A stretch of DNA of 64,000 nt from Candidatus Parcubacteria bacterium (lineage in GTDB: Bacteria; Patescibacteriota; Minisyncoccia; SURF-38): assembly GCA_003599335.1 (NCBI GenBank), contig QZJN01000007.1, forward strand, positions 812 through 64,811, written 5' to 3'. The translations under genes and the position numbers were made by a program. This document shows, piece by piece, positions 20,638-33,043 of the stretch. Positions within the stretch are counted from its first letter, which is position 1. Every line of letters begins with the position of its first letter. The notes beneath the pieces were generated by a model that was not told where the DNA came from, did no database searches, and saw nothing but the letters and a program-made list of their open reading frames with translations.

Positions 20638-20708
20638 TGCGGGATCGTCTAATGGTAGGACACCAGCCTTTGGAGCTGGGTATCTTGGTTCGAATCCAAG
20701 TCCCGCAG
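20638..20708 (+). tRNA. tRNA-Gln (anticodon UUG)
   Basis: Cloverleaf folds by hand. Acceptor stem TGCGGGA/TCCCGCA with U1-A72. Anticodon arm CCAGC-CTTTGGA-GCTGG. TPsiC arm CTTGG-TTCGAATC-CCAAG. Discriminator G. CCA is not encoded. Confidence 0.8.
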
Positions 20709-20712
20709 CAAT

Positions 20713-22465: not shown

Positions 22466-24055
22466 ATGGAGCTATCTCCTACAGATCTTCTCTCAAAAGG
22501 ATACTTTCCGGAGGAATTGCCACCACCATTTCAAACCGTGGTATTGGGACAAAAGTTTTCAAAATTAGAGAAACAGCTTTCAAAAGTTACCAAAAAATTT
22601 AGGCAAGCTCATGCAAAGTCGAGTTGCATAAAATACACCGCTCCAAAAAGAGGTTTTTCGAGACGCAACTTTAATATTCCAAATCCTTTCCACTTTATAG
22701 AGCTAGTTAGATTACTAAACGACAATAAAACATCGATTTTAAAAATTTTAAAATCATCAGAGTATTCTATTTTTCTAAAAGAAAGGCTTAGGAATGACTG
22801 GAACGAATTTGCAAAGGATAGATTTGTAAAATCACAAGACTACATTTATGAGTTGAAAACTGATATAGCTCGTTACTTTCCAACCATTTATACTCATAGT
22901 ATTTCTTGGGCTATTCACGGTAAAAAAATTGCGAAGTCTAACAAAAGTAACCCGAGCCTCTGGGGCAATGAACTAGATAAAAAGGTAAGAAACCTGCAGG
23001 ATAATCAAACCATAGGAATCCCCGTTGGCCCTCATGTTTCTAGAATAATTGCAGAGTTAATAGGTTGCGAGGTAGATAAAAAGTTGAAAGAGTGGATACT
23101 TAAAGAAAATCTCGATGTTCTTGTTTTTAGATATATTGATGACTACTTTTTATACTTTTCAGAAGAAAGTACAGGAGAAAAAATCTTAAACTCGCTTCAA
23201 TCAATTTTAGACGATTTTAACCTAGAAATTAATCACAATAAAACTGAGGTAACAAAATTTCCCTTTGGTCTAGAGCCTAAATGGGTCAGCGACTTAAGAT
23301 CATTTACCATACGCAAAAAGAACCCCGAACAAATATTCGATATCATGGATTTTTTTAGCATAGCTCTTAACTACACTAACGAACACAAAAATGAATCTAT
23401 CCTAAAATATTCTCTAATAAAACTTCGTAATACAAAAATAATTGATCGAAACTGGGATTACTTCGAAGCTTGGCTACTAAAAATTCTTTTGTATAATACC
23501 AATGTTCTGCCAGAAATACTTAGTTTATTCTTATTAAACCAAGGTAAACTAAACGCAGATAGAATAAAGCAAGCAATTGAAAAACTAATTGTAACAAGCA
23601 TCAAAAAGAAAAATAACTACGAAATCGCTTGGAGTCTCTGGATTGCTAAATCTCTAAAGATTAAATTATCTAGTCAATTAGTTAGTGGGGTGTTTCAATT
23701 AGAAGATCCGATTTCAATTTTAATTGCATTAGATTTAATCAATTCTAATCTAATTATCGGAACCACTAAAAAATATCTCAATTCTTTAGGAAATTCTTTA
23801 AGTCAAAATTCTCTTTTTAACGAATACTGGCTACTAGCTTACGAAAGTAGCATTAAAGGATGGCTAAAAATACCAAAATTAAATTTGCAGAACGACGAAT
23901 TTTATAAAACTCTATACAAAGAAAAAGTGAGTTTCTATGACAGCAAAAAACAAATTTACTATGCTCCTTACAGCAGACGAAAAAAAAGAACTGCTAAGGA
24001 AAAGAATAATTTTATTGGTTTTACCCGCATATTTAAACGTCCATCTTTTTATTGA
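22466..24055 (+). CDS. stand-alone reverse transcriptase, AbiK/Abi-P2-like (abortive-infection class)
   Basis: RT motifs: APKRGFSRRNFNIPNP (motifs 1/2), DIARYFPTIYTHSISWAIHGK (A), GIPVGPHVSRIIAELI (B') and VFRYIDDYFLYF (C, YIDD). NLEINHNKTEV follows as motif D. A C-terminal helical extension of about 250 aa follows. No maturase or endonuclease domain. Confidence 0.75.
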   Translation: MELSPTDLLSKGYFPEELPPPFQTVVLGQKFSKLEKQLSKVTKKFRQAHAKSSCIKYTAPKRGFSRRNFNIPNPFHFIELVRLLNDNKTSILKILKSSEYSIFLKERLRNDWNEFAKDRFVKSQDYIYELKTDIARYFPTIYTHSISWAIHGKKIAKSNKSNPSLWGNELDKKVRNLQDNQTIGIPVGPHVSRIIAELIGCEVDKKLKEWILKENLDVLVFRYIDDYFLYFSEESTGEKILNSLQSILDDFNLEINHNKTEVTKFPFGLEPKWVSDLRSFTIRKKNPEQIFDIMDFFSIALNYTNEHKNESILKYSLIKLRNTKIIDRNWDYFEAWLLKILLYNTNVLPEILSLFLLNQGKLNADRIKQAIEKLIVTSIKKKNNYEIAWSLWIAKSLKIKLSSQLVSGVFQLEDPISILIALDLINSNLIIGTTKKYLNSLGNSLSQNSLFNEYWLLAYESSIKGWLKIPKLNLQNDEFYKTLYKEKVSFYDSKKQIYYAPYSRRKKRTAKEKNNFIGFTRIFKRPSFY

Positions 24056-24099: not shown

Positions 24100-24465
24100 A
24101 TGATCTCCACACGCATACTTATTTTTCACACGACACTCCTTATTGGTTTTATAACTGCCTCTGTGGCTTCGTCTGTTATAACAATGGTTTTTCCAGAACT
24201 TTTGCCCGGGAAATATCTTTTGTTTGGCGTGATCCTGCTAACCGGGCTTATCCTTGGTTCCTGGTCATTATTTCGCGGATGCCCTTTCACTGTGTGGGAA
24301 AATAAATATCGCGAACGCGAACGCCCCGGCTCGGCGTATCGCGGCCCCTGCATTGATAGATATATAAAAGAATGGTTCAACGTCCGCCTGCCCGCGCGAT
24401 TGAGCACATTTATACTTCTTGGCTTTCTCATCTTCCCCGCCATAACCGGCCTACTCAATTGGTAA
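24100..24465 (+). CDS. small membrane protein, DUF2784-like
   Basis: Three TM helices with a GCPFTVWEN...R motif. GC is intermediate between the host and the island. Confidence 0.4.
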   Translation: MISTRILIFHTTLLIGFITASVASSVITMVFPELLPGKYLLFGVILLTGLILGSWSLFRGCPFTVWENKYRERERPGSAYRGPCIDRYIKEWFNVRLPARLSTFILLGFLIFPAITGLLNW

Positions 24466-24528
24466 AACACATTCTCCCTCCAAAACAAAAAGCTAAAGCC
24501 CACCAACAACCTCTCAACAACATCGTAT

Positions 24529-24544
24529 GTTAACAATTGTTAAC
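24529..24544. promoter_or_regulatory. perfect 16-bp palindrome GTTAACAATTGTTAAC (copy 3)
   Basis: Exact third copy, at the left edge of the high-GC island. Confidence 0.5.
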
Positions 24545-24641
24545 GTAAGTTTTTTATTCAGGTTTTACTTTTTGTCTCTCCTCCCTCAAAACTCCCCTTT
24601 CATCTCGCCGCAATTTCAACAAAGACTGACAAAAACAAAAA

Positions 24642-24672
24642 GAGCCAATCCCTTTCGGAACTGGCTCTTTGT
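24642..24672 (-). terminator. rho-independent terminator hairpin
   Basis: AGAGCCA...TGGCTCT stem, with T-runs on the minus strand and a weaker T-run on the plus strand. Lies directly 3' of the minus-strand island gene. Confidence 0.5.
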
Positions 24673-24693
24673 TTGAAAGACCGATGTTGGAAA

Positions 24694-25779
24694 CTAGTTG
24701 GCGCCGGCCGCGGCTGCAGCCTGGTCCATTGTTTCTTCCGGAGTTTCCGAAAGATCCAAGGGCGGTGCAGTTTCGTTCGGCCGGAGACGCCGCGTGCGCT
24801 TGCCGGAGTTGACGTGATTCAGCAGCATTTGGTAAAGGATCTCACGCGCCTTGCCACTGGCCGAAGCCAGATTGACAATGTACGGATCGGTTACCGGGAA
24901 GAGCTTGATCTTGCGGATCAAATCCCTCTCCACAAAAAACCGCTTATCACGCCAGAAATCCTGGTGCCTCGAGAACAACGTTGCTAGGCAGATCAGGAAG
25001 GTGTTGCGCAGGTACGCGGCGCCTTCGCGAATCGTCACAATGCGGATACCCCAGCACTGATCGAGTATGTCAGAGAAGGTTCGTGCGTTCTCGCGCAGAA
25101 CATTCGGGCCTGTAACCTCCATGATTTTCTGGAGGCCACGAGCCAACTCGTCAGTTTTGCTCCCGCGGCCAGGGCCAAGGTGAGAGTGCAGCGCGCCAAC
25201 CGCCTTACAGAAAGTCAAGGCAGTGATCAACTCGCCGTGCTTCATCCGCTGGCTCCAGGAAATCTTGCCGTGCATGACGAACCCGCGATCGCGAGTCGTC
25301 AAGCTGAACAAGTGAGAGACAACAGGGAACTCGTGCTGGAGATTGCGGAGCAGAATGTTGGGAGAAAGCTTTGTCCGCTCGGTGTTGAGGATGCGGAAAC
25401 GGTCCCGTTCCCACTCCTCGGTTGTATTGAAATGAACCGTGCAGCCCAGGCGTGGCGACTTGCCAGTACCCAGCTGCATCAGACGCATCGCCGCGGTCAC
25501 CCGCTGCAGACCGTCGATGATGAAAACATCGTTCTTGAGGTAGAAAGCCCCGTCGCGCTCCATAAAATCCCCTCCCCGCATCCCAAGTTCAATGTCGGGA
25601 ACGGTGCTCTTTTGGAACGCTTCGATGAGCGTGTTGATTTTGGCCAACGGCAGAACCTCGCGCTGATAGGGAGCAGTCTGCAATTGGTGCAACGAACCCG
25701 GGTCAACCTCACCTCGGAGAATAATGTCTTTCTTCTCCTCGCTGAGAGCAGCCCGTACTACCTTAACTGAATCGCGCAT
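24694..25779 (-). CDS. ParB/Srx-fold protein with DGQHR/DUF262-like motif (IIDGLQRVTA)
   Basis: 361 aa, GC-rich codon usage. IIDGLQRV resembles the DndB DGQHR and DUF262 DGQQR(LTT) ParB-like motifs. The SD (AAGGAGG) sits 11 nt upstream. Confidence 0.4.
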   Translation of the reverse strand: MRDSVKVVRAALSEEKKDIILRGEVDPGSLHQLQTAPYQREVLPLAKINTLIEAFQKSTVPDIELGMRGGDFMERDGAFYLKNDVFIIDGLQRVTAAMRLMQLGTGKSPRLGCTVHFNTTEEWERDRFRILNTERTKLSPNILLRNLQHEFPVVSHLFSLTTRDRGFVMHGKISWSQRMKHGELITALTFCKAVGALHSHLGPGRGSKTDELARGLQKIMEVTGPNVLRENARTFSDILDQCWGIRIVTIREGAAYLRNTFLICLATLFSRHQDFWRDKRFFVERDLIRKIKLFPVTDPYIVNLASASGKAREILYQMLLNHVNSGKRTRRLRPNETAPPLDLSETPEETMDQAAAAAGAN

Positions 25780-25877
25780 AAAGCGACGATCCTCCTTGTG
25801 AAGATTGGCTTTGACTCCCTTATGCCATATTGGCTGGGATGGTAAGCCAATTTTTTTATATCAAACAAAAACTAAAG

Positions 25878-25911
25878 TGTCAAGCAATTTTCTGTCTCCC
25901 GTGGCTTGACA
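25878..25911 (+). promoter_or_regulatory. inverted repeat TGTCAAGC-N18-GCTTGACA overlapping a TTGACA -35 hexamer
   Basis: Exact 8-bp inverted repeat in the divergent promoter region between the DGQHR-like gene and the three-ORF unit. Confidence 0.35.
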
Positions 25912-25959
25912 GAATTATATTTTTATACAATAATCTTTCCAGACTTTAAGGAGGTACAC

Positions 25960-26295
25960 ATGGAGGAAAAGCTCTTTTTGCTCAAGAAGAAACACAAACA
26001 CGAACTGGCGGCCGTTCCCGGAGGAGACCACCCAACCTTTGATTCCGACGAGTTCGTTGTCGGCACATCTCCCGAAGAAGTGATCGATCGGATTTTCAAT
26101 GAGGAGAAAGCCAAACGCGACGAGTGGGAACGCAAGATGGAAACCGCGGAAACCCAGGATGTTGTAGATGACCCCATCGGAACTTTTCCGCCGGTTCTCC
26201 CCGTGCGCAAAGAAGAATGGAAGGCCGAGGAAGTGAAAGTTGATGGCTACACCATCATCCTGGAAAAACAACCCGAACCCTCTCCTGCGACCTGA
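25960..26295 (+). CDS. hypothetical acidic protein (111 aa)
   Basis: Strong SD (AAGGAGG) 7 nt before the ATG. GC-rich codons. No recognisable motif. Confidence 0.45.
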   Translation: MEEKLFLLKKKHKHELAAVPGGDHPTFDSDEFVVGTSPEEVIDRIFNEEKAKRDEWERKMETAETQDVVDDPIGTFPPVLPVRKEEWKAEEVKVDGYTIILEKQPEPSPAT

Positions 26296-26326
26296 TTTAA
26301 ATCGCTCTCTGAATCTGGAGGAAACC

Positions 26327-26545
26327 ATGGAAAATCGCCAGGTTGTTTTTGTGGAAGCGATTATCAAAGACGAAGAACTCAAAGCTGGCCAAAACCCGCG
26401 CATTCGGCCAAACGAACTTCTGGAACGTGGCCTTGAAGCTCGCCGCGCCGAGGGATGGTGCGATGTTTTTGCCCTTCCCTTGCCCACGCCCGATGGTGGC
26501 CAAAAATGGGCCATCGTTTTCCACCGCCATAACCATCTTCACTAG
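26327..26545 (+). CDS. hypothetical small protein (72 aa)
   Basis: GGAGG SD upstream. Same transcription unit as the preceding ORF. Confidence 0.4.
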   Translation: MENRQVVFVEAIIKDEELKAGQNPRIRPNELLERGLEARRAEGWCDVFALPLPTPDGGQKWAIVFHRHNHLH

Positions 26546-26642
26546 CCTTCGCAGAAAAGCTCAAAGCTTAGTACGCGAGGGCTTTTCTGTTTATTGACAG
26601 GATAACACTTATATGTTAATTAAGTTTTATACAGGAGGTGTC

Positions 26643-26936
26643 ATGTTTCAGTTCTTCAAAGACTGGCGACGCAGGTGGCGGGAGAAAAAGCGGCGACGGC
26701 TTTTGGACGAACTTGCGTGGGTGGAAAGTCAAATCTCCAGCATCACGCAGGAAAACGCCCAAACCAAAAAGCTCCATACGCGCCTGGCCGAGGAAAGCGC
26801 CGTGGTTTTTGACCAGGAGAGAGACTCTCGTTTTGCGGCTCGTTCAAGCGAGCGCGCCCAGAATGCAATCCTCCTTGGCCGGTACCAACGCGAAAAAAAG
26901 CTCATTGAGCGAGAGCTCGCTTCCCTCCCCGCCTAA
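26643..26936 (+). CDS. hypothetical basic/coiled-coil protein (97 aa)
   Basis: AGGAGGTG SD. Arg/Lys-rich N-terminus followed by a heptad-like helical region. Confidence 0.45.
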   Translation: MFQFFKDWRRRWREKKRRRLLDELAWVESQISSITQENAQTKKLHTRLAEESAVVFDQERDSRFAARSSERAQNAILLGRYQREKKLIERELASLPA

Positions 26937-26951
26937 AGCACAGCAGCAAAA

Positions 26952-26993
26952 GGCCCGGACCGATCTAACCAATCGCGCCGGGCCTTTTCTTTT
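26952..26993 (+). terminator. terminator-like hairpin GGCCCGG...CCGGGCC followed by TTTTCTTTTCTT (repeat copy A)
   Basis: 7-bp GC stem with a long loop and a T-run. Closely related to the copy at 28004-28046. Confidence 0.45.
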
Positions 26994-26994
26994 C

Positions 26995-27023
26995 TTGACA
27001 TAAGTAAATTATCATTTTATTAT
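26995..27023 (+). promoter_or_regulatory. sigma70-type promoter (TTGACA, 17-nt spacer, TATTAT)
   Basis: Near-consensus hexamers 42 nt upstream of the PyrD-like gene start. Confidence 0.45.
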
Positions 27024-27064
27024 CGCAACATCCTGAAAGACGGGAAAACTACAAGGAGGAGACG

Positions 27065-27988
27065 ATGGAGATCCCATCGGCAAAGTTCGGAGCTCTTGAA
27101 TACACGCCAGCTCTTTCCAACGGCGCAGGAATGATCAAAAAGCTTGAGGATGTGCGGGAAATGGCCCTCTCGGCCGCCGGCGCCATCGTCGTCGGCTCCA
27201 TCACCCTCAAGGACAGGCCTGGCAACACAGGCAACACGTTTTGGGTCGGCCAAACCGGCTCAATCAACTCGCTTGGCATCCCCAACCCCGGCAAGGAATA
27301 CTACCGGCAAAACATCCATTTGATGGTTGGTGTCGCCCATGCTCATGGCAAGAAACTCATCGTCAACGTGGCCGGCTTCCAACCAAACGAATTTGGCGAA
27401 CTGGCCCTCTTGGCCTTTGATTGCGGGGCCGACGCGGTTGAGCTCAACTTCGGCTGCCCCAACATCTGGGACGATGGCACCCAAAAAGGCATTATCAGCT
27501 TTTACCCGGATGTTCTGGGCGAATCGCTGGAAGCCGTGAGACGAGCCGTTGGCGTTGGCTCCAACATCATCGCTAAGGTTTCCCCTTTTTCCAACCCAAT
27601 ACAACTCAAGGAAATCGGCGGCGTGATCGTGAGCTCAGGAATCGTTTCGGCCATTACGGCCATCAACACCTTCCCCAACGCTTACGGCGAGTACGAAAAC
27701 GGCCGGCCGGTCATTGATCCGGGCGGAGGACTTGGCGGCTTTGCCGGCGCCGGGCTCAAACACATTGCCCTTGGTCAAGTGAAGCAGTGGCGCGCCCTGC
27801 TGCCTCCCGAAATTGCCATCATTGGGGTTGGCGGTATTTCCAGGGGCAAGGACATGGCCGAGTATTTCCGTCATGGCAAGGTTGCGGCCGTTCAGGTCGT
27901 TACGGCGCTTTTGCGCAAGGGCCACATGGACCCCAACGCCTTGAGCACCATTCTCATGGAATACGCCGAGCTGCCGGATGCAGCGTGA
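27065..27988 (+). CDS. dihydroorotate dehydrogenase-family (PyrD-like) FMN TIM-barrel oxidoreductase
   Basis: NSLGIPNPG, ELNFGCPN and C-terminal IIGVGGISRGKDMAEYFRHGKVAAVQVVTALL match class-1 DHOD signatures. SD AAGGAGGAGAC. Confidence 0.65.
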   Translation: MEIPSAKFGALEYTPALSNGAGMIKKLEDVREMALSAAGAIVVGSITLKDRPGNTGNTFWVGQTGSINSLGIPNPGKEYYRQNIHLMVGVAHAHGKKLIVNVAGFQPNEFGELALLAFDCGADAVELNFGCPNIWDDGTQKGIISFYPDVLGESLEAVRRAVGVGSNIIAKVSPFSNPIQLKEIGGVIVSSGIVSAITAINTFPNAYGEYENGRPVIDPGGGLGGFAGAGLKHIALGQVKQWRALLPPEIAIIGVGGISRGKDMAEYFRHGKVAAVQVVTALLRKGHMDPNALSTILMEYAELPDAA

Positions 27989-28003
27989 AGTTCCACAACT
28001 AGA

Positions 28004-28046
28004 AGGCCCGGAGCCAAAATTAACTTTTGGCGCCGGGCCTTTTCTT
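28004..28046 (+). terminator. terminator-like hairpin GGCCCGG...CCGGGCC followed by TTTTCTTTTT (repeat copy B)
   Basis: Same stem, and a partly conserved loop, as the copy at 26952-26993. It marks the right edge of the GC island. Confidence 0.45.
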
Positions 28047-28071
28047 TTTATTTAATTTTCGTACAATAACA

Positions 28072-30628: not shown

Positions 30629-33043
30629 TTAAGACTGGGATTGTGTCTGCTGGACCGTTGAGGTTGCGGCCTGCAATTTATCCCAGATCTCACGCTCAAC
30701 AACATCTTTTGGACGACCGTATTTATTTAAAGCATACGCCCTAACCCTATCAATCCATTGAAGATCCGGTTTTGGCAAAGGAAGAGTTTTCATATTAAAC
30801 GGCTTTGAAGTCTGGCCGCCGATTATCATTTTTATATAAGCGTTGTAGTTATCAATATTTATAAGATCGTTTGAGGAAAAAACAGGCTCCATTTGTTTAG
30901 AAAGAAAATCTCCATCTTCCGGCCCAACACGAAAGGCGACGATCGTGCCAACGTTGCCAAAAACGGCATCGCGAATGTTTTGCGGAAGTTGAGCTATGAA
31001 TTGATGCGCAACAGTGAGGCTTAAACGATATTTTCTTGCTTCGGATAAGATTGAGGCAAAAGAATCGGTTGTAAAATTCTGAAACTCATCGACATAAAGG
31101 TAAAAATCCCTTCTCAAGGATTCAGGAATGTCTCCCCTGCCAAGGGCAGCCATCTGCAGCTTTGAAACCAAAATCAAACCAAGCAAGTGGCTGTTTACCT
31201 CGCCGATTTTCCCCTTGGAAAGATTTGCCAATAAAATTTTCCCCTTGTCCATAATATCTCTGAAATTAAATGCCGAATAAGGTTGGCCGATGATATTTCT
31301 CATGGCCGTGTTTTCAATAAACCGACCTAATTTTGAAATAAGATATCCCAACATTTCGGAACGATGAAAATCCGAAGTTTGAGCCATTTCTTTTTCCCAG
31401 AATGATCTAACCAAAGGATCGGTAACTTTCTGAAGTTTTACTTTTACAAATTCTTTGTCGGTAAAAATCCTTGGAATTTCAACTATAGTTCCGGGGCTTT
31501 CTTTTTCGGCGGCCAAAGTAAGCATGGCGTTTCGCATATTATGCTCAAACAAAGGCCCTGTCATTTCCGGTGGAAACAATTTAAGAAAAATTGCTATCAT
31601 TTCCTGAACCGCCAGATCTTTTTGATCTTCGGTCTGCCATTCAAGCATGTTTAGACCCATAGGCCGTTCGGTAAAACTTGGATCGAAATAAACGACATCA
31701 TCAAGCCTCTCTTTGGGTATATAGCTCAAAACCGTATTAACAAGCTCTCCATGAGGATCAATAACCGCCACGCCATGACCAGCTTCGATGTCTTGCTTTA
31801 TTAAAGAGCCTATAAAATTTGATTTACCGGTGCCGGTCTGACCGACTATATAAAGATGCCTTCTTCTGTCATCGGGAGACATTTTTACGAGCCTTGTTGC
31901 GCCACGATAAACATTTTCTCCAAGCACCAACCCTTCCTGGGGAAGATTAACCGGTGGCTCTGCCGGTTTAGATTTTAACCAGGCAATTTTCGGAACGCTC
32001 ATGCCGGGCGGAGGAAAATGGAACAAAGCGGCAAGCTCGGAAGCACTCAGAAACAAAGACTCCGCTTTATTGAAAAGCCTAAAAGAATAATTAAAAGTGA
32101 ATTTTTTTAAAGAAGAGCCGGAAATCCTCCTTACTTTAAACGAATTAAGCCCACTTTCTTGAAATTGGGCAAAATAATCTTCCAAATTGGCAACTATCGT
32201 TTGCGCCTGAACTTGAGTCGGGGCCGAAACTATAAGCCTAATATTAGCTTCAAAATTAACCTGACTGCCCTTTTTATTTATAAGCTGGGCGCTTTCATCG
32301 GCAACAGAGGCTACAAACCTCGGAGCTTTATCTTTTTCACTTAAAGATTTTCCGCGCAGAGCATCTTCTAAGCTTAATCCCTCTGCCAACTTCCTAACGA
32401 TCGATCTTGCTTTCTCGTTTAAGGAAGTTGCCCCTTTTCTCAAGACTATCTGATAACTTGCTCCCTCTCCCTCTTTTGCAAGCTTTGTAAAAATATTCGT
32501 CAGGCTCGGCAAAGGATCGGAGCTGAAGCGAGAAACATCCTTAACCGGCAATACTGAATCCCGCGATAAAACAATATATGAACCGGCTGTTGAACCTTGG
32601 GGATGAAAAATATTATAATCATCAATCGGCTCGACATAGGCTTCCGGATAAAGAGCCTGAATTTGTTTCGTTATGGCCTCTTCTAATTCTTCGGGTGTTG
32701 AAACATAAAATCTTATTTCCTCTCCTATGTGATGAACAGAAATTTCAAAAGCCAAAGCCGGCCATCTTAACTTTTTACTACGTTCCAAAATTCCTGCCAA
32801 AGAAGCGAAAAATTGTTCTGCCACGCCGGAATATTCCTTGAATTCAGAGGGGTGAACATTTGAACTTTGGGGTAAAGTTACCAATAGTAATTTTGTGTGC
32901 AATGCCCTAAGCGTCTGATTTTTTGACTCCCAACGAAGCCAAAAAAGCCAAAGAATCAAAATTAAAATTAAAAAAACAAAAAATGCGGCCGCCCCGCCTA
33001 TAAGACCGGCTTGAGAAATTTTTGCCAATAAAATCGTTTCCAT
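30629..33043 (-). CDS. TraD/VirD4-like type IV secretion coupling ATPase (AAA-like, DUF87-type)
   Basis: 804 aa. N-terminal TM helix, Walker A LYIVGQTGTGKSNF and Walker B LYVDEFQNF. Domain organisation resembles T4SS DNA-transfer coupling proteins. Confidence 0.5.
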   Translation of the reverse strand: METILLAKISQAGLIGGAAAFFVFLILILILWLFWLRWESKNQTLRALHTKLLLVTLPQSSNVHPSEFKEYSGVAEQFFASLAGILERSKKLRWPALAFEISVHHIGEEIRFYVSTPEELEEAITKQIQALYPEAYVEPIDDYNIFHPQGSTAGSYIVLSRDSVLPVKDVSRFSSDPLPSLTNIFTKLAKEGEGASYQIVLRKGATSLNEKARSIVRKLAEGLSLEDALRGKSLSEKDKAPRFVASVADESAQLINKKGSQVNFEANIRLIVSAPTQVQAQTIVANLEDYFAQFQESGLNSFKVRRISGSSLKKFTFNYSFRLFNKAESLFLSASELAALFHFPPPGMSVPKIAWLKSKPAEPPVNLPQEGLVLGENVYRGATRLVKMSPDDRRRHLYIVGQTGTGKSNFIGSLIKQDIEAGHGVAVIDPHGELVNTVLSYIPKERLDDVVYFDPSFTERPMGLNMLEWQTEDQKDLAVQEMIAIFLKLFPPEMTGPLFEHNMRNAMLTLAAEKESPGTIVEIPRIFTDKEFVKVKLQKVTDPLVRSFWEKEMAQTSDFHRSEMLGYLISKLGRFIENTAMRNIIGQPYSAFNFRDIMDKGKILLANLSKGKIGEVNSHLLGLILVSKLQMAALGRGDIPESLRRDFYLYVDEFQNFTTDSFASILSEARKYRLSLTVAHQFIAQLPQNIRDAVFGNVGTIVAFRVGPEDGDFLSKQMEPVFSSNDLINIDNYNAYIKMIIGGQTSKPFNMKTLPLPKPDLQWIDRVRAYALNKYGRPKDVVEREIWDKLQAATSTVQQTQSQS

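Follow-up and report, generated by a model that had tools for sequence, protein, structure and literature searches.

A horizontally acquired pyrD-like gene of a Parcubacteria contig and its pyrimidine-gene-linked clade with a class-2-type lysine placement

What does a lone flavoenzyme gene do on a piece of foreign DNA, and is there a pathway for it to serve? The question is raised by an open reading frame (ORF) that begins with ATG, encodes 307 residues and occupies positions 27065..27988 of the forward strand in a 64 kb stretch of the 66 kb Candidatus Parcubacteria bacterium metagenome contig QZJN01000007.1; the whole of this stretch is what we call the window. A preliminary description of the locus, made from the sequence alone, had assigned the product to the dihydroorotate dehydrogenase (DHOD) family and had placed the gene, as an orphan, on a foreign island beside defence-type genes, where it might act as a dihydropyrimidine or modified-base reductase or in nucleic acid modification. 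DHOD (PyrD) catalyses step four in the synthesis of uridine monophosphate (UMP), in which (S)-dihydroorotate is oxidised to orotate. We infer that the ORF quite probably encodes a catalytically active, soluble PyrD dependent on flavin mononucleotide (FMN), horizontally acquired and with an ordinary function in UMP synthesis, and that it belongs to a clade which we designate Gly44/Lys25/Cys131 after three diagnostic positions. What had appeared as an orphan flavoenzyme beside defence genes would then be a horizontally acquired pyrD, and not a defence or base-modifying enzyme.

Membership of the DHOD superfamily is clear. The translation agrees in full (100% identity) with an NCBI/JGI entry that bears the name 'dihydroorotate dehydrogenase', and residues 9-288 match the Pfam DHO_dh model PF01180 with 111.4 bits (E 6e-32, cut-off 27). 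The class-1-like motifs on which the preliminary description had based its family assignment are all found in the translation, namely SINSLGIPNPG (66-76), VELNFGCPN (125-133) and IAIIGVGGISRGKDMAEYFRHGKVAAVQVVTALL, and that assignment stands. The nearest solved relative among the sequences of the Protein Data Bank (PDB) is Lactococcus lactis DHOD A, a class 1A enzyme (E 4e-23). An AlphaFold2 model of the protein, built on 35 clade members, has a predicted local distance difference test score (pLDDT) of 94.9 and a predicted template-modelling score (pTM) of 0.93, and the best 50 matches that Foldseek returns for it from the PDB are all class 1A DHODs, at a template-modelling (TM) score of ~0.86 and ~26% identity. 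The ORF is full length, and all 23 residues that are invariant in the clade are kept in its product.

The genomic company of its relatives speaks to function. A word-indexed search returned 331 homologues, the best 120 of which are 40-62% identical to the query, are about 300 residues long and come from Patescibacteria, Terriglobia and other groups; when 1.84 billion cluster representatives were scanned exhaustively with phmmer, 317 of them matched at E <= 1e-30. The clade comprises at least 317 clusters at 50% identity, mostly from Patescibacteria, with some from Actinomycetota and Acidobacteriota. When the neighbours of the clade gene in 80 reference-genome loci were clustered without prior labels, and linkage was scored within 6 kb flanks, at least one of pyrC, pyrE, pyrF, pyrB and carAB was present in 47 of the 80 loci, and 6 of the 10 Parcubacteria-type loci showed linkage to pyrC, pyrE or pyrF. 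The commonest neighbour family is PyrC (27 loci, in 22 of them within 300 bp), and the next are two PyrF types and two PyrE types; the identities come from NCBIfam (pyrC_dimer, 310.9 bits against a cut-off of 293; pyrF_sub2, 250 against 111; pyrE, 130.8 against 107). PyrE lies directly upstream of the clade gene in two loci at 59% identity that are among the closest with usable context (L001 and L002), and a further locus at 59% identity (L088) shows the arrangement OMPdecase-PRTase-ORF-DHOD, that is, orotidine monophosphate (OMP) decarboxylase, a phosphoribosyltransferase, an ORF and the clade gene. A Kerfeldbacteria locus (L006) has the order pyrF-pyrD-pyrE. carB adjoins the clade gene in ten Actinomycetota loci, and in the cultured Patulibacter minatonensis a pyrC-like gene, carA, carB, the DHOD gene, gmk and coaBC follow one another in order. 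The remaining recurrent neighbours are unrelated housekeeping genes, and none of upp, dihydropyrimidinase, Dus-type, reverse transcriptase (RT) or defence genes is among the recurrent neighbours in the 80 loci. Given these neighbours, the clade is best read as the real PyrD of these organisms, since OMP decarboxylase and PyrE would make no sense as partners unless orotate is the product. For the present host we would expect pyrC, pyrE and pyrF to be located elsewhere in the genome.

The neighbourhoods offer two further observations. Compact pyrC-pyrD-pyrF-pyrE clusters occur in five loci from Saccharibacteria and other Patescibacteria (L034, L039, L044, L045 and L086). In addition, pyrB was detected in just 2 of the 80 loci and carAB in Actinomycetota loci only, so that many Patescibacteria may encode just the segment from carbamoyl-aspartate to UMP.

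The residues of the active site are, for the most part, those of a DHOD. We number equivalent residues after L. lactis DHOD A and use the query's own numbering for its Lys25, Gly44 and Cys131 and for the residues of the proposed mechanism; residue counts refer to the best 120 of the 331 homologues and to 133-136 further representatives. The equivalents of Asn67, Cys130, Lys164 and Asn193 are invariant in the best 120 homologues and those of Asn127 and Asn132 nearly so (at least 118 of 120), while the same six positions are kept in 134-136 of 136 further representatives. The catalytic cysteine, Cys131 of the query and Cys130 of the L. lactis enzyme, stands in a GCPN loop and is conserved throughout the 120 homologues and in 135 of the 136 representatives. 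Of the catalytic base and the FMN- and substrate-contacting residues to which the preliminary description had drawn attention, the cysteine and the asparagines are thus in place; the lysine of the second strand, Lys43, is replaced by glycine, and a class-2-type lysine is found on the beta1 loop, which is the truly unusual trait of the protein and one that the preliminary description had overlooked.

That replacement is among several points that weigh against the reading of this gene as an ordinary, working pyrD. Lys43 binds the 6-carboxylate of orotate in class 1A (PMC4427443); it is Gly44 in the query, and glycine in 120 of 120 homologues and 133 of 133 representatives. The beta2 lysine is essential in class 1A, the K45A mutant of the R. 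arrhizus enzyme being inactive (PMC10395836), and its substitution by a residue elsewhere in the clade is something that we read from an alignment. The protein also scores far under every curated NCBIfam equivalog cut-off for DHOD: its best match is the class 1A model NF002702, with 128.7 bits against a cut-off of 301, and it reaches 125.2 bits against 269 for the class 1B model NF005574 and 53 bits against 267 for the best class 2 model, NF003652. The other clade members score 127-205 bits with NF002702. Furthermore, class-1A look-alikes with the conserved cysteine have proved to be dihydrouracil oxidases (PMC10395836). Lastly, the window holds no partner pyr gene, which may leave the enzyme without a pathway in this host, and bacteria of the candidate phyla radiation (CPR) often have incomplete nucleotide pathways (PMC8407418, PMC11974145). 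A tblastn search of the 64 kb with more than 50 PyrC, PyrE and PyrF seeds from the relatives' neighbourhoods, together with carA, carB and E. coli PyrB, found no pyrB, pyrC, pyrE, pyrF or carAB (best E = 0.012), which agrees with what had been described, as does the solitary position of the gene. Still, the clade gene has no pyr or car gene within 6 kb in 33 of the 80 loci (41%), so the orphan state seen here is not unusual.

As to the missing lysine, the hallmark of the clade is an invariant Lys25 in the best homologues, which lies within an N-G-A-G-x-x-K motif just after beta1; among the representatives, position 25 is lysine or arginine in 130 of 133 (arginine in 11). In alignment, the beta1 loop of the clade, GAGxxK25 (GAGMIK25 in the query), corresponds to AAGFDK100 of human DHODH and AAGLDK66 of E. 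coli PyrD, and the beta2 stretch VVG44S45IT corresponds to human EIGSVT and E. coli EIG85T86VT, the two reference sequences having been verified against 3u2o_A and 1f76_A. Both Lys66 and Thr86 of the E. coli enzyme form hydrogen bonds with the FMN ring (PMC8984913). On the strength of this alignment, we propose that Lys25 may take over the role that Lys43 of beta2 plays in class 1A.

The reaction could then proceed much as in known enzymes. By homology, Cys131 in the GCPN loop would be the catalytic base and would take the C5 proton of dihydroorotate, and the hydride would pass from dihydroorotate to FMN. Asn68, Asn128, Asn133 and Asn201, with the backbone of Leu70-Gly71-Ile72, would hold the pyrimidine ring and the carboxylate, and Lys171 and Lys25 would contact flavin and carboxylate, Lys25 reaching in from the loop after beta1 as its counterpart does in class 2. 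Reduced FMN would pass its electrons on to a soluble acceptor, with fumarate or another small oxidant of its kind as the likeliest candidate, because the fold is that of class 1A, no PyrK neighbour recurs beside the clade and there is no quinone domain.

How does such a protein compare with the recognised classes? Class 1A enzymes (L. lactis DHOD A/PyrDa, trypanosomatid DHODH, yeast Ura1) are fumarate-dependent homodimers; class 1B enzymes combine PyrD with PyrK, which carries flavin adenine dinucleotide (FAD) and a 2Fe-2S cluster, and depend on nicotinamide adenine dinucleotide (NAD); class 2 enzymes (E. coli PyrD, human DHODH) are quinone-dependent and membrane-associated. The clade matches class 1A best in both sequence and structure. 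Its members are of similar length (~310 residues) with no N-terminal extension, the alignment starting at about residue 1 of both, and they have the catalytic cysteine in an xCPN loop, the four substrate asparagines, Lys164 and the class-1A-type insert VIxPxxGxGG before the GG motif. They depart from class 1A in having glycine for Lys43, with a lysine on the beta1 loop instead, threonine for Ser194, and an active-site loop that is 4-5 residues longer after CPN. The placement of G-x-G-x-x-K on the beta1 loop and of Gly-Ser/Thr on beta2 is identical to that of class 2, but the catalytic base is cysteine (GCPN) where class 2 has serine (SSPN), the class-1A insert is absent from class 2, and the clade does not have the N-terminal helical quinone/membrane domain of ~40-90 residues: the query starts ~15 residues before beta1, whereas the human and E. 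coli proteins have ~90 and ~55 extra N-terminal residues. Class 1B shares with the clade its cysteine base, a similar size and an Asn-Thr pair (N201-T202); we had considered this pair as a marker of class 2 or DPD, and it was ruled out as such on finding the same pair in class 1B. Class 1B keeps the beta2 lysine (GSIMVK48ATT, Lys48 in 1ep1_A) where the clade has Gly44, and the clade therefore differs from both class 1 subclasses in lysine placement. Moreover, no PyrK was found among the 20 annotated representatives of the neighbour clusters (those present in at least 3 of the 80 loci) or adjacent to the gene in the window, in searches that used no dedicated PyrK seed.

The clade is absent from the usual 1A/1B/1S/2 scheme (table in PMC10395836), and in the literature searchable as open-access text we found neither a prior description of its lysine arrangement nor experimental work on any of its members. 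A bolder and more tentative idea, which we regard as possible though rather doubtful, is that it constitutes an unrecognised DHOD class: a soluble enzyme with a cysteine base that combines a class 1A scaffold with class 2 lysine topology and serves Patescibacteria, together with some Actinomycetota and Acidobacteriota, as their principal PyrD. Were this so, classes 1 and 2 could be linked in evolution through the clade, or the clade could use an electron acceptor of its own; owing to the sub-cut-off scores, pyrimidine synthesis could be systematically under-called in CPR genomes; and the gene studied here would be a mobile, self-expressed single-step module by which an episymbiont converts dihydroorotate to orotate. 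Should biochemistry confirm the clade's pairing of the class 1 cysteine and fold with the class 2 lysine placement, the 1A/1B/1S/2 classification would gain a variant, there would be a natural test of the movement of a flavin/orotate lysine between strands, and metabolic reconstructions in which CPR bacteria come out with an incomplete pyrimidine synthesis would be affected.

The gene is horizontally acquired, from a donor of higher GC content, and lies within a foreign island of ~3.9 kb (~24100..28050) that also carries a DUF2784-like ORF, a 361-residue protein of a CPR family on the reverse strand and three small ORFs. The island has 47-58% GC; in a 200-nt GC profile, values run at 44-63% inside it and 28-40% outside it, with a sharp 3' edge at ~28000, just after the terminator of pyrD. 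The gene itself has 57.7% GC and 69.2% GC at third codon positions (GC3); the window outside the island has 38.5% GC, and the flanking host genes 32-39% GC and 28-38% GC3. The foreign character of the island, already noticed in the preliminary description, is in this way confirmed. Its donor was probably another Patescibacterium. In two of the closest relatives, L001 (8001-8954) and L089 (172-1110), the pyrD gene has 52% GC in surroundings of 43% and 41%; this subclade of pyrD may have moved between CPR genomes time and again, or its GC content may reflect an intrinsic compositional bias.

The signals for expression are equally distinct, and the near-consensus promoter and terminator that had been ascribed to the gene are both its own. 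A sigma-70-like promoter on the plus strand (26995..27023), TTGACA-17 nt-TATTAT, agrees with the consensus at 11 of 12 positions and sits in an AT-rich gap right after an upstream terminator; a Shine-Dalgarno sequence, AAGGAGG (27053..27059, +), can be read 5 nt before the ATG. Downstream, an intrinsic terminator (28003..28048, +) consists of a GGCCCGG...CCGGGCC stem and TTTTCTTTT, the hairpin spanning 28003-28041 and a T-run following it, with a folding energy of -30.1 kcal/mol (z -6.4). From these elements, pyrD would be expressed in this host under its own promoter, ribosome-binding site and terminator. The upstream terminator is a twin of the downstream one (26948..26993, +; -24.2 kcal/mol) and ends a 107-residue ORF at 26613-26936. 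By repeat search and alignment, the two hairpins have in common a perfect 19-nt 3' arm plus T-run, and this 19-mer, GCGCCGGGCCTTTTCTTTT, occurs in the window only at 26975-26993 and 28030-28048, against a chance expectation of 0.12. The outer stems of the twins are identical, and their inner stems differ through compensatory changes. Promoter, gene and terminator form a cassette of 1055 bp bracketed by the twin hairpins, which could mark a cassette-type insertion, a duplication of the terminator, or a kind of terminator that the donor genome commonly uses.

Other explanations for such a gene have to be considered. One is that it is an idle passenger, a true DHOD in a host without pyrC, pyrE and pyrF, serving no pathway and having at most a marginal role in redox balance or scavenging. 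We retain this possibility because nucleotide synthesis is often incomplete in CPR genomes, and it would fit the absence of any pyr or car gene from the 64 kb, as well as a composition that, at 69% GC3 against ~30%, has not been ameliorated and points to a recent acquisition. Against it stand the full-length ORF, all 23 clade-invariant residues and strong expression signals of host type; solitary members of the clade (41% within 6 kb) occur even in lineages that have pyr clusters; and the linkage to pyrC, pyrE or pyrF in 6 of 10 Parcubacteria-type loci, taken with the fact that the window is a small part of the genome, makes us regard the idea as unlikely. Another explanation would turn the loss of Lys43 into evidence for a substrate without a carboxylate, in which case the protein would be a dihydrouracil or dihydropyrimidine oxidoreductase of the kind of dihydrouracil oxidase (DHUO) or PreA. 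The fungal, class-1A-like DHUO proteins and the FMN domain of PreA/DPD belong to the same superfamily and have a conserved cysteine loop, and DHUO proteins are routinely mis-annotated as DHOD (PMC10395836). The glycine in all clade members at the position of the carboxylate-binding lysine, the precedent of dihydrouracil oxidases that share the cysteine motif with class 1A (PMC10395836), and a partial match to the PreA model NF006183 all lean this way. The PreA match, however, amounts to 77.5 bits against a cut-off of 335, and the basic residue at the class 2 position in 130 of 133 members means that the active site is not short of its lysine. The genomic context is, besides, that of the orotate pathway (pyrC/E/F, carAB) and not of the uracil pathway: pyrC, pyrE, carAB and OMP decarboxylase recur beside the clade gene, PyrC passing the cut-off as a dihydroorotase and not as a dihydropyrimidinase, and OMP decarboxylase being required only where orotate is the product, while neither upp nor dihydropyrimidinase recurs. 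We therefore hold a dihydropyrimidine substrate to be quite improbable.

Still harder to credit is a nucleic-acid-modifying or defence flavoenzyme, such as a Dus-like base reductase, that would act together with the neighbouring RT or with the 361-residue protein of the island. Such a role is suggested by a weak, partial Dus match (PF01207, residues 94-164, 28 bits) and by the two neighbours themselves. The RT (22466-24055, +) directly abuts the island and is of the Drt6/Drt4 type, with PADLOC scores of 526 bits for Drt6 and 511 for Drt4 and an NCBIfam Drt4 score of 249 bits, under the cut-off of 450. The 361-residue protein (24694-25779, -) has no Pfam domain and a faint DGQHR/DndB-like match of 17.6 bits against a cut-off of 58.85. 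The Dus match, though, is restricted to the common TIM-barrel core and does not extend over the full length of the protein, and with the equivalog models for DusB (cut-off 293) and DusC (cut-off 395) it reaches 19 and 15 bits. The RT, at 31.8% GC, is more AT-rich than the host and contrasts with the GC-rich island, which argues for a separate history and acquisition. PADLOC matched the RT alone and none of the island's proteins, the DHOD included; homologues of the 361-residue protein in other contigs lie among housekeeping genes without a DHOD; and neither RT nor defence genes recur beside clade members in the 80 loci. The description of the gene as lying beside defence-type genes accordingly holds for the RT and does not extend to the rest of the island. 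The proposed role in dihydropyrimidine, modified-base or nucleic acid chemistry is not borne out, since the relatives adjoin pyrE, pyrF, pyrC and carA-carB-pyrD-gmk, and no uracil, Dus or defence partner recurs among them.

Turning to the remainder of the island, the gene for the 361-residue protein has 56.5% GC and 69.6% GC3, nearly the composition of pyrD, which fits co-transfer of the two from one donor. Its family has at least 330 homologues and is widespread in Patescibacteria, 119 non-self matches among those listed being 47-67% identical, and in two other contigs its members lie next to holB or dnaX. Between this gene and pyrD are three small ORFs on the plus strand, at 25960-26295 (~111 residues), 26240-26545 (~101 residues) and 26613-26936 (~107 residues), two of which overlap in different frames; a second near-consensus promoter, TTGACA-17-AATAAT, lies ahead of the first of them at 25906-25934. 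Neither the small ORFs nor the DUF2784-like ORF have counterparts near any DHOD homologue, or Pfam or PADLOC matches.

The route by which the island arrived has left few marks. In scans of the window we saw no integrase and no long direct repeats flanking the island, and tRNA-targeted integration is thus not evident. A phage or plasmid origin was considered and rejected: tblastn against phages and plasmids gave only canonical DHODs at no more than 32% identity, and blastn of the whole island against plasmids gave no match. In the comparison of synteny around the insertion, the best relative of the anchor, a Sua5/YrdC-like protein encoded downstream, is only 48% identical, and no metagenome locus had at least three flanking genes in common with the window. 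A tRNA-Gln(TTG) gene lies 3.4 kb upstream of the island (20638-20709, +), with PP2C-like, EamA and RT genes between. On the other side, 2.6 kb downstream, a gene of host-like composition (30629-33043, -) encodes an 804-residue HerA/DUF87 and TraG/VirD4-type ATPase resembling a coupling protein, with matches to T4SS-DNA_transf, TrwB and TraG-D_C, and may belong to a DNA-transfer system or be what is left of one.

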